Part shown: positions 21,723 to 61,560 of the stretch, in pieces | Numbering within the stretch: the first letter of the stretch is position 1 | How the letters are laid out: each line of letters opens with the position of its first letter | Assembly (NCBI GenBank): GCA_951406725.2 | Contig: OX597828.1 | Location: forward strand, 15,748,001 to 15,812,000 | Direction: 5' to 3' | Origin: Octopus vulgaris | Taxonomy: Eukaryota | DNA length: 64,000 nt | The notes under the pieces: model-generated | Databases searched by the model: none | Seen by the model: the letters and a program-made list of their open reading frames with translations, nothing else | What the model was told of the DNA's origin: nothing | Position numbers and translations under genes: made by a program

Positions 21723-21760
21723 TCTTTAACGTTTCGAGCCTACGCTCTTCAACAGAAAGA
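21723..21760 (-). ncRNA. Minimal type I hammerhead ribozyme-like fold (Penelope-like element fragment)
   Basis: Minus strand: UCUUU CUGUUGA A GAGC guag GCUC GAAA CG UU AAAGA. Stem I is 5 bp, stem II 4 bp, stem III a palindromic ACGU; A6U core variant. Confidence 0.6.
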
Positions 21761-22510
21761 TACACAGAGAAAAAACACAGAAAGAAGCAGAGAAAAAAAA
21801 TATGCGTGCAGGGATTATGTATATATAATCAAAATATGAAAGCAAAGAAAGAATTTAGCACATCTTCAATCACCAGTGACAATTGTTTCTCTAACACTGT
21901 GTTTTTAAGGCCATTGAACGCAAGAACTTAATGTGAAAAGTTTCGTAATATTTGCGGTTTTAAACACTAGAATTCCACTTCCTTCGGGTTGCATCTTCCC
22001 TTGACCATAGATTGGTTTTTTTTTACTGATGTGACACCTGGATCTTCTATACCTGAGGGATTTCGAGCTTTCTTAAGGCTACAATTAAAGAATTGTAGAT
22101 ATCCTGAAGCCCGAGTTGATGGCTATTTTGGAAATATCCTGTCTTTCTACCCATTCCAAGACCATTTTGATATATAATGCACACACGGAACTTGCGTGAT
22201 AGGCCTCATACATAAAGTTCTAATCAAGTTTTATGACGAAGACCACGGTACCCATTGTAAATCTATCTATTTCTCTGTAACTTAACCGTGGTATTGACAC
22301 GTGCAGATATGTAGCTATAGTTGCATCTAAAAACACAAGTGAAACAAAATGTACACACTTGAATAGCAGCATATATATATATATATATATATATATATAT
22401 ATATATATAGTTAATCCAAACAAGAAAACAAAAAAACACAACAACGCGAGGACGTGGAACAAATATAGTATTATTGGACGCTCAGGAAAGAAGGGAAGGG
22501 AAGAAGGAGG

Positions 22511-22545
22511 GTTTAACGTTTCGAGCGGAGCTCTTCGTCGGAAAC
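22511..22545 (-). ncRNA. Minimal type I hammerhead ribozyme-like fold
   Basis: Minus strand: GUUU CCGACGA A GAGC ucc GCUC GAAA CG UU AAAC. U4C core variant with an extra A after A9. Confidence 0.65.
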
Positions 22546-22615
22546 ATAGGAGAAGGAAAGATCCAGAGAAGGGAAAACAGAGGGAAAAAAATCGCCAACG
22601 GTACACACGAGGTCA

Positions 22616-23400
22616 TCCAGAAATCTTTCGTCACACATCTGTGACCTCTTCATCAACACTTTCCGTCTTCGTCTGTGCTATTGTTCTGCTTATTCCACAC
22701 ACACATGTATGTATGTGTATAAAATTTACCTATATATCTATCACTCTTTCTAACTATTTATATATATATATATATATATAACAGAGTTATTGAGATTATC
22801 AATCCGGGCAAAATGCTCCATAAGCTCTCTGTTAGTACACCAGTCAAACAATATTGTTGAAATTAGTATTCTTGCGGGAGGGTCCGAGGTTATAGTTCAT
22901 TACCCTTCTGTATTGTAAATATAATCTGTTCCAGTTATACAGGTTTTTTAATCAGAGTGATATACAAGACATGGCATAAATAATAGTCATTCCATATCTG
23001 TCTTTATTGTAATAAATTTGACTATTTATGCATTGTCTATATATATATATATATATATATATATATATATATATATATATATAATGATTTTGTGTTGCAA
23101 GATTCCTGATGTGAAGTCGTGTGTTGAAACAGGTATTGTTGTATTTTGGGATGGTAATTTTCTTTTTTCTTTTTTTTTTACCAAATATTCGTTCTTCATT
23201 CGTTTATTACTGTTCTTATTCTAACTCACGTCCGCTGTCCAGAAATCTTTCGTCACACATCTGTGACCTCTTCATCAACACTTTCCGTCTTCGTGTGTGC
23301 TATTGTTCTGCTTATTCAACACACACACACACACACATGTATGTATGTGTATAAAATTTACCTATATATTTATCACTCTTTCTAACTATTTATATATATT
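22616..23400. repeat. ~165-bp direct repeat pair (pseudo-LTR-like), ~22616-22780 and ~23238-23400
   Basis: Near-identical TCCAGAAATCTTTCGTCACACATCTGTGACCTCTTCATCAAC...CTCTTTCTAACTATTTATATA blocks, each ending in (TA)n. Confidence 0.85.
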
Positions 23401-24012
23401 TATGTATATAAGGCAATTGTGCATTTCAGGTATTTTGAGTCGGTTTACCCTCAGATGATTACGCTGACATTTTCTTTATATACTGACATTCAATGTCCAT
23501 TCACTCTGTTTATTTCTTTTACGTAGACATTGGTCATAGCACTATTAATTGCCTATTCGTTGTTGAGCACTCGGACTGAATATATAACTCGATGACATTA
23601 AGTCGGGCGTATACCTTGTGAGGTTTATTAAGTCTTATTATATCACACATGCGCGCACTCACTCTTACACGCATACACATATATACACGCACACACACTA
23701 TCATATATGGTCATATGTTTATATACACACATACACAGGTTTTTGAAAATATCAATATCAGTATATATATATATACATATATATATATACATACATATAT
23801 ATATATATATATATATATATATATATATATATATATATATGTAAACACATACATAATACATACATACATACATACATATATATATATATAGTCATAACTG
23901 GTGTTTTATAAATGGTTGTGTACAAATAGTGTTATATTTTTCTATAATATCTATCTATCTATCTATCTATCTATCTATCTATCTATCTATCTATCTATCT
24001 ATCTATCTATAT

Positions 24013-59404: not shown

Positions 59405-59780
59405 AATGCATGTGTTATGTGACTAGTAAAAAGCTTGCTTCTCAACCACATGGTTCTAGGTTCAGTTCCATTGCATGGCACTTTGGGCAAATGTCTTCTA
59501 GAGCCCTAGGCCAACCAAAGCCTTGTGAATTTGGTAGATGAAAGCTGAAGGAAGCCTGTTTGTGTGTGTGTGTCGTGTTTGTCCCCCCATTACCTCTTGA
59601 CAATCAGTGTTGGTGTGTTTATGTCCCCATAACTTAGCAGTTCGGCAAAAGTGATTGATAAAATAAGTTCTAAGCTTTATAAAAAAATGTACTGGGGTCA
59701 ATTCAATTGACCAAAAATTCTTTTAGTTGGTGCCCCAGCATGGCCACAGTCTAATAACTGAAACAAGAAGATAAAAGATA
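59405..59780 (+). mobile_element. SINE family A copy
   Basis: AGCTTGCTTCTCAACCACATGGTTCTAGGTTCAGTTCC...GAAACAAGAAGATAAAAG. Confidence 0.75.
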
Positions 59781-60461
59781 TATAGAGTAGTTGTATATTG
59801 TCAACTTAATGTGACAGTCCCATGAAGGGAATCACACCACTGCTATTTAGCCCTAGGAAGCATCAACGCTTCCTGTCAGCCGTGACACATTTCCTGTGTC
59901 CTTATGTTTACAAGGGGGATTTGTTTACTATCTTCTGTGAAAACATGTCCATTGAAATGTTTGTTTGGAAGGAGTAAGAGAAATATTACCTTGCACGGAA
60001 ACAGATGAAGACTAGTGACAAGAAGAACATCTGTTTCACTGAATTTCTTTTTCATCCCCTGGAGTGTGGAAAAGCGGATGTCAAAGCAATGATGATGATC
60101 AAACCATTCCAGTATGTCTCTGTTGCTTATGTGTGTCTGTGAGGGCACTCCTAGGCATGTGGTCCACCACTCCATATAAATCAACTACCTTCACCTGCTT
60201 TCCGGTTATAAGAATATTATGTTAGCTGAGAACTTTAAAAAAAAAAAAATCAGGGAACTTTTACGTAGTTGCCCAATGTGCTTAAAACAACAACCATTTT
60301 CTCTATCAAACCAAACTGTCTTAAAAAAGAAAGTAGGCACATTGGATAAGACAGGGTGGTTAATTGGAATATGCCAGCCTCTTCCGGCCCCTGTGCCGGT
60401 GGCACATAAAAAATACCCACTACACTCACGGAGTGGTTGGCGTTAGGAAGGGCATCCAGCT

Positions 60462-60883
60462 GTAGAAACACTGCCAGAACAGACTGGAGCCTGGTGCAGC
60501 CTCCTGGCTTCCTAGACCCTGGTCGAACCGTCCAACCCATGCTAGCATGGAAAACGGACGTTAAACGGTGATGATGATATTTGCTCAATGTAGGTACACC
60601 TGCGTCTAAATGCTGTAGCAGTCACCACCATGCTTAGACTCTAAGCTGGAGATCGTTGAATTAAGCTGAAGTAGAAACACTGCCAGAACAGAATGGAGCC
60701 TGGTGCAGCCTCCTGGCTTCCTAGACCCTGGTCGAACCGTCCAACCCATGCTAGCATGGAAAACGGACGTTAAACGATGATGATGACATTTGCTCAATGT
60801 AGGTACACCTGCGTCTAAATGCTGTAGCAGTCACCACCATGCTTAGACTCTAAGCTGGAGATCGTTGAATTAAGCTGAAGTAG
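60462..60883. repeat. 209-bp tandem duplication with GTAG microhomology
   Basis: GTAG at 60462, 60671 and 60880 delimits two near-identical units. Confidence 0.95.
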
Positions 60884-61454
60884 TTATATATTTCAGCCTA
60901 GTATTTTTATTGTAGAAGTGAACTGGTTGTGTGGCTATGATTATCCACACAACTGGTTTACCAACTCATAGATTGTGGGTTCATATGAGACATAAAGGAT
61001 AGTATTTTGTCTTGGGTAAAGAAACTGTAAATATAACACAATCTTTACAATACAACCCAGTGCCTTTGTTAGTCCATTACTTTCACCATTCAATAACTAA
61101 TAACATGCTGAAAATATCACACTTCATTAGTCTCTATTAGAAATTTATGACCATTATTAATTTTCCTGACATTAACTGTTAATTGGTATAGACATCATTG
61201 CTTGTGTGTGTGTATATATATATATATATCATTAATATTAGGAGAATGTAAATGGCCAGAAATGTAATTAAGTAAATATAAATTGTTTTGATAAATATCT
61301 ATTGAAAATCTCTCTCTCTCTCTCTCTCTCTCTCTCTCTATATATATATATATATATATATATAGTGTGTGTGTGTATATATATATGGTAACAAATCAAC
61401 ACACAAGAAAAAGCACTCAATACGAGTAGTGGAGTATAATTAATTTAATTGTTG

Positions 61455-61560
61455 AAGCCATTAGTCTTGAGTGATCACATACACTTCATCAAAAGTATTG
61501 TTCTGCTATGGCTGCTGTTTGATGAAGTGAATATATTCAGAAAATCAAGAGTAATGGCTT
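61455..61560. repeat. Decayed palindrome containing a degenerate hammerhead fold (61514-61558, +)
   Basis: AAGCCATTAGTCTTGA...CACTTCATCAAA versus TTTGATGAAGTG...TCAAGAGTAATGGCTT. The fold reads GCUGU UUGAUGA AG UGAAU au AUUCA GAAA aucaaga GUA AUGGC. Confidence 0.55.

Follow-up and report, generated by a model that had tools for sequence, protein, structure and literature searches.

The window analyzed here is a 64,000-nucleotide (nt) stretch of Octopus vulgaris DNA (contig OX597828.1, positions 15,748,001 to 15,812,000), which is 35% GC, animal-like and rich in microsatellites. Five sites within it (A to E), together with a mirror copy of site C, show the layout of a type I hammerhead ribozyme (stem I, core, stem II, GAAA and NUH) in a structured scan, at the places where an initial annotation had put them (Table 1). 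This kind of ribozyme is already known. What is new is that changes in the core, A6U and U4C, are lineage-wide.

A strict scan returned 6 matches, compared to a mean of 0.04 and a maximum of 1 in 100 block-wise dinucleotide shuffles of the window; its descriptor was chosen with the sites already known. A covariance model trained on 24 non-window sequences gave its top ranks to B (E-value 2.7e-9), A (3.1e-9), D (1.4e-7) and E (7.9e-5), and did not recover site C. This model is partly circular, because most of its training loci came via a pattern derived from A, B and D. Hammerheads were absent from the Rfam matches listed (150 of 172), and searching only the surroundings of E and A, with E-values up to 10 accepted, brought up none. 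Since Rfam also misses E, whose core is canonical, it does not follow, as had been proposed, that standard searches overlook these motifs on account of their cores. Motif searches of viral and prokaryotic collections gave 0 matches. No site folded better than shuffled sequence (z from +0.67 to -1.88), and the double-hammerhead form was less stable than the minimum by 5-17 kcal/mol whether the motif was variant or canonical, making folding uninformative on cleavage.

The core consensus CUGANGA is found at site E only. Position 6 is U in A and D, position 4 is C in B and C, and none of these four sites shows a second core change that would compensate. The two changes never occur together in the window and mark different subfamilies. 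An extra A between positions 9 and 10.1 and the pair G10.1-C11.1 are present in A, B, D and E, and neither is present in C. Thus, of the core deviations first described as recurrent, U4C and A6U do recur, as lineage-fixed states, whereas E is fully canonical and C lacks the extra A. Nor is that A atypical: a base is printed at this place in 54/56 representatives of the PLE (Penelope-like element) hammerheads (PMC4209133), which makes it ordinary. Stem III is palindromic throughout, reading ACGU in A, B and D, AUGU with G-U pairs in E (likely a product of CpG decay of ACGU), and a 9-nt near-palindrome in C. As stem III of A, B and D consists of the ACGU palindrome alone, it pairs only between two copies.

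Table 1. Hammerhead sites, their carrier elements and decayed relatives in the window
Feature	Coordinates	Strand	Description
Site A	21723..21760, motif 21755-21728	-	Core CUGUUGA (A6U), extra A, 4-bp stem II, ACGU, 5-bp stem I
Site A, predicted cut	after GUU	-	
Short high-copy element of site A	21594..21808 (left end approximate)	-	~50 nt U-rich leader, motif, ~130 nt tail to (TA)n; from depth and alignment
Site B	22511..22545, motif 22541-22515	-	CCGACGA (U4C), stem II as in A; tail 22410-22510 A-related, abuts (TA)n
Site C	42721..42758, motif 42725-42754	+	CCGACGA (U4C), no extra A, 3-bp stem II (one G-U), near-palindromic 9-nt stem III
Site C fold-back	42631..42796		Perfect, 83 nt, 96%; holds C and mirror 42702-42673 (-), mirror core CCGACGA
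Site D	51519..51554, motif 51523-51550	+	CUGUAGA (A6U), A family; tail to (TA)n at 51641
Site E	52952..52997, motif 52957-52992	+	CUGAAGA (canonical), extra A, 6-bp stem II, stem III AUGU
Site E insert	52929..53105	+	147 nt between exact 15-nt direct repeats 52929-52943 and 53091-53105 (likely a target-site duplication)
F, decayed copy of A/D lineage	39583..39620	-	U6 kept; G8, G12, C15.2 and one loop base changed
F duplicate	40798..40835	-	Inside 1.23-kb tandem duplication 38906-40134 / 40127-41347, 98.7% identical
G, F-subfamily fragment	42280..42343	+	64 nt; CUGANGA half missing; within 79-nt inverted arms 42204-42282 and 42353-42431
Doubtful remnant	18790..18825	-	Adjacent tail 18840-18899 F-related, opposite direction
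Doubtful remnant	61514..61558	+	UUGAUGA core, broken stems

To survey A6U, contigs from four public sequencing runs (three organisms) were aligned to 21596-22365 at 80% likeness. At position 6 (21752), as at position 7, no alternative letter reached 4% in any of the four runs, and U6 made up >96% of the aligned depth. H17 was A in 55-90% of the depth and G16.2 was A in 3-14%. In run X1, summed depth reached 4.1 million at the motif versus ~62 in flanking DNA, and fell from 693,731 in bin 21778-21803 to 3,959 in bin 21804-21829. Because overlapping short contigs inflate the depth, our estimate for the family of site A stays at thousands to tens of thousands of copies. A and D differ at 2/36 motif positions (N7 and H17, both free) versus 16/71 in the tail (Fisher p 0.03), and both retain three CpG sites and both stems. 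Two further observations concern the surroundings of element A. Across 21720-21759, loose ends in 4/4 runs share the site-A motif alone and have other flanks to either side, which may point to another family built on this module. Upstream of the element, 21805-22090 is moderately repeated (up to ~35x the flank in run X1) and gave no protein match.

For U4C, a core-free pattern search of metagenomes found at least 120 loci (L001-L120; ~250 estimated in all). We dropped 29 of these as chance matches (GC >49%), leaving 91 AT-rich loci, and merged 5 duplicates to give 86 distinct loci, 73 with a recognizable core start and 13 without. Position 4 is C in 32/37 loci of tail class I, compared to 1/26 loci of classes II and III; position 6 is A in 71/73. 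Stem II and the ACGU of A, B and D match this metagenome family, whose motif is nearly that of the Acropora Neptune row published in PMC4209133. ORF (open reading frame) remnants lie upstream in 11/91 AT-rich loci (8 distinct, two query loci included), among them the CCGACGA loci L008/L069 and L084. Relatives of the upstream ORF carry reverse transcriptase (RT), PF26215 and GIY-YIG domains, and two of them are named from corals. Two metagenome ORF fragments had no Pfam match of their own; their identity as PLE sequence follows from the domains of these longer relatives. Going by the position 4 counts, U4C marks one subfamily of a coral-like PLE. The family resembles site C in that 21/86 distinct loci have an inverted motif ≤200 nt upstream. 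(TA)4+ lies within 250 nt downstream in only 2/86. The coral-like loci also hold further canonical minimal hammerheads of other families (L020:2453-2500, L041:99-147, L054:2365-2413 and L113:527-575).

Could the altered cores simply reflect random decay of single copies, or the motifs chance matches? Decay is evident in F, its duplicate and G, and likely in stem III of E. On the other hand, 6 matches stand against 0.04 expected, U6 prevails in >96% of the aligned depth in 4/4 runs, and C4 tracks the tail class. We regard this explanation as hardly credible. The data on A, on D and on the coral-like U4C subfamily contradict it, and in these the core changes are inherited and did not arise by decay copy by copy; for B and C of this host, inheritance is only probable.

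Sequence comparison places A, D, F, the F duplicate and G in one lineage. B shares stem II with A and is 68-75% similar in its body, whereas C and E each come from a family unrelated to A, B and D. All four lesions of F fall at likely CpG sites, as read from its sequence, and the two F copies score an E-value of 0.06 with the covariance model. They represent one tandem duplication and hence are not independent insertions; the duplication (38906-41347) may be genuine or an assembly artefact. G was missed by the covariance model, as were the sites at 18790 and 61514, neither of which is among its 20 window matches. Taken as decayed copies, 18790-18825 and 61514-61558 are weak candidates, since among 1500 random segments of the window 2.6% and 8.6%, respectively, score as high; the latter site does not stand out from background. 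Thus, among the decayed copies originally listed, those at 39583, 40798 and 42280 hold, the first two as a single duplication, and the other two are doubtful. The region surrounding G (42204-42431), with arms 90% alike beside TA runs and a 70-nt piece of the F subfamily between them, looks like a MITE (miniature inverted-repeat transposable element) with a captured hammerhead fragment.

Covariation had been claimed for stems I and II. In an eight-sequence alignment, the 4 pairs of stem II are invariant, with identical sequence in A, B, D and F, and changes on both sides of a pair are confined to stem I. Differing stem II sequences are found only in the unrelated C and E, so the covariation claimed is limited to stem I and to comparisons between unrelated families. 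Although paired-change counts in this alignment exceed those of 499/500 shuffles, they mix two related groups and hence are no proof of covariation.

Another motif resembling a hammerhead, with UUGAUGA, four extra bases, a 6-bp stem and GAAA, occurs at 22656-22620 (-) and 23278-23242 (-). Its carrier is a repeat present twice (22616-22778 and 23238-23410, 92% alike), with homology stopping just past the motif. It departs from the hammerhead layout in stems I and III, and its score against the five sites is no better than background. At 1031-1057 (+), a half-core, CUGACGAA, is closed by a stem I of 4-5 bp and lacks stem II (model E-value 1.6e-4). The repeat end at 1180-1320 resembles 22775-22915.

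Several features connect the sites to PLEs. Their layout and palindromic stem III, and in A, B, D and E also the extra base and the G10.1-C11.1 pair, are those of the published consensus for PLE minimal hammerheads, in agreement with the original assignment. Inverted 5′-truncated copies and microsatellite or AT-rich targets have been described for PLEs (PMC8557442), and these traits are seen here in the fold-back of C and in the (TA)n tracts that follow A, B, C and D. A (TA)4+ tract lies within 44-135 nt in these four tails, with 20% of random positions reaching one within 140 nt. E and F are far from such tracts (346 and 1108 nt). Hence the idea that several lineages had colonized (TA)n tracts stands as to the lineages and as to the tails of A to D, but not for E and F. 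Octopus vulgaris contains 6.83% Penelope-like DNA, according to a paper in which ribozymes go unmentioned in the parts covered (PMC13282606). Octopus Naiads that prefer (TA)n are recorded in the supplement of Craig 2021 (PMC8557442); in the portion covered, the window motifs are absent save for one partial match in coding-like sequence. The motif itself, the fold-back of C, the termination in (TA)n and the parallel with the coral-like family together suggest a PLE origin in this host.

An alternative is that the repeats are self-standing non-autonomous elements with defined ends, akin to SINEs (short interspersed nuclear elements) or retrozymes, rather than truncated PLEs. The family depth ends sharply near 21805, homology between A and D begins at about the same place, the 147-nt insert of E is flanked by a 15-nt direct repeat, and no ORF was detected near the repeats, all of which would fit such elements. 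Yet no tandem array covers any site, so the tandem units with a type I hammerhead each that characterize non-LTR (long terminal repeat) retrozymes are lacking, and the ORF-linked coral-like family is likewise mostly short and ORF-less (80/91 loci). We consider this alternative improbable. As non-LTR retrozymes have been proposed to derive from PLE ends (bioRxiv 10.64898/2026.07.22.740005), it differs from an origin as PLE fragments mainly in degree.

Our preferred reading, to which we assign a probability of roughly 0.55, is that the sites are minimal hammerheads in short high-copy repeats, likely PLE 3′-end fragments; that the lineage-shared A6U and U4C are predicted to weaken cutting; and that the repeats spread anyway, with a residual role kept for the motif. 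PLE reverse transcriptase/GIY-YIG protein would copy the RNA end into AT-rich DNA, leaving copies that are truncated and at times inverted. A6U or U4C may have arisen in a founder element that was then amplified, because insertion would need no efficient self-cleavage. The fold could have been kept because slow, dimer- or protein-assisted cleavage was likely retained, or because it serves as an RNA handle for the PLE protein. Lone copies such as those in the window are probably inert. Three lines of published work favor a weakened ribozyme over its rivals. Pairwise mutagenesis of a type III hammerhead found low activity for every single and double mutant of the CUGA turn except a 3-8 swap (PMC9901934). 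In an anole PLE, ribozyme mutants were without effect on insertion, and cleavage required protein (PMC11167929). Finally, Naiad PLEs proliferate without canonical hammerheads (PMC8557442).

A number of observations weigh against this reading. The mutagenesis was done on other hammerheads, and the parts of those papers covered do not single out A6U (PMC9901934, PMC3088659). No PLE ORF remnant was detected in the window by Pfam (24 frames over 4 regions), and a profile of 40 PLE proteins run on all six window frames gave a best E-value of 0.25. Searching the window with the two metagenome ORF fragments (tblastn) gave nothing, as did a homologue search with a 42-residue frame across site A. With no PLE ORF in the window, a PLE origin in this host is argued from resemblance. 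Contig-summed depth does not translate into copy number, and alignments of relatives that have different flanks may stop short of position 6; the fixation of U6 therefore speaks only for the aligned family. Selection on the motif comes down to one pairwise test, the difference between motif and tail being non-significant for A versus B (p 0.36), as was the distribution of variable positions among the aligned contigs (2/38 versus 8/83, p 0.50).

These same tests bear on the view that the motifs are fully dead passengers, amplified from a founder with a broken ribozyme and under no selection. Two of the three conservation tests are not significant, and in the predicted monomer fold U6 allows pairing between the core strand and AACG. 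Cleavage is dispensable for insertion in vitro (PMC11167929), and the spread of Naiads (PMC8557442) is consistent with this view as well. However, A and D keep their three CpG sites and both stems despite 16/71 differences in the tail, and sequences with different flanks share 21720-21759 alone. On balance, dead passengers seem to us distinctly unlikely.

At the opposite extreme, A6U and U4C could be working ribozyme variants, reaching useful rates as dimers, with PLE protein or with a metal such as Mn2+. In favor of this are the lineage-wide fixation of the core changes, the variation at free positions while the remainder of the A/D motif is kept, and the presence of U4C in two unrelated window families and in the coral-like subfamily. 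Moreover, the natural A6C hammerhead is active in Mn2+, in which it cuts well (PMC7151607), and viroid infectivity is supported with U4C (PMC3088659). Against it, CUGA-turn mutants had low activity with no rescuing second change (PMC9901934), and A, B, C and D lack a visible compensating core change. In vitro, cleavage is poor even for PLE minimal hammerheads with a canonical core (PMC4209133). We judge working variants unlikely, though less so than dead passengers.

A broader proposal, offered only tentatively, is that one of this animal's most abundant repeat lineages spread with an A6-to-U hammerhead that is still under selection. This would be either a working A6U ribozyme in need of Penelope protein or another metal, or a hammerhead fold that no longer cuts and has been reused as an RNA handle by the Penelope reverse transcriptase. 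If U4C became fixed separately in further lineages and in corals, catalogues built on CUGANGA would then miss a sizeable share of animal hammerheads. In any event, searches demanding CUGANGA undercount such motifs. PLE hammerheads are nearly universal, weak in vitro and dispensable for insertion in the sole reconstituted system. Amplified sister lineages one core letter apart (A6/U6, U4/C4) provide a natural test of the role of cleavage in spreading.

How do these motifs compare with known hammerheads? The annotation had suggested an undescribed variant class. This is not borne out: U4C and A6U mark separate subfamilies, and natural core variants at these positions, U4C in a viroid and A6C in phage Bcep176, are already published (PMC3088659, PMC7151607). 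Both lower hammerhead activity (PMC3088659). No natural or lineage-wide A6U was found in the literature searched, which also takes in PMC6962438, PMC8490949, PMC6155905 and PMC8967140; Lunse 2017, Arkhipova 2017, figures and the bioRxiv supplements lie outside this scope and may hold it.

The closest parallel is the minimal hammerhead described by Cervera and de la Pena in 2014, which resides, mostly as a solitary motif, in the pLTRs of metazoan PLEs (pseudo-long terminal repeats; PMC4209133). Its consensus comprises a U-rich leader, CUGANGA followed by H, a G...C stem II, GAAA, a palindrome and NUH (PMC4209133). The window sites share with it the type I topology, short stem I, extra base, palindromic stem III and U-rich leader, the G10.1-C11.1 pair (in A, B, D and E), a mostly solitary occurrence and occasional opposite-strand pairs. 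They differ in that no cephalopod is among the 56 published representatives, and in that A6U and U4C are lineage-fixed here. All 56 representatives have U4 and A6, because the search descriptor demanded both, and the sole core variant class is at position 3/8 (PMC4209133). PLE variants reported by Lunse, Weinberg and Breaker in 2017 similarly have a reduced stem III and cleave as dimers, according to a review (PMC6765202).

At the level of single elements, the Acropora digitifera Neptune hammerhead (Fig. S3 row 1 and Table S1 of PMC4209133) and the metagenome loci L001-L120 have a near-identical 4-bp stem II, ACGU and the extra A. One subfamily of these Neptune-like loci has the CCGACGA core of site B, and an inverted upstream copy is frequent. 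In contrast, their tails are unrelated to those in the window, (TA)4+ is rare and position 6 is mostly A. The U4C viroid and the A6C hammerhead of Bcep176 are altered at the same core positions as the sites described here, and their activity is reduced yet detectable. Those, however, are rare single cases among full-size hammerheads, whereas in the octopus the changed core belongs to a minimal motif of the dimer type, carried by a high-copy repeat.

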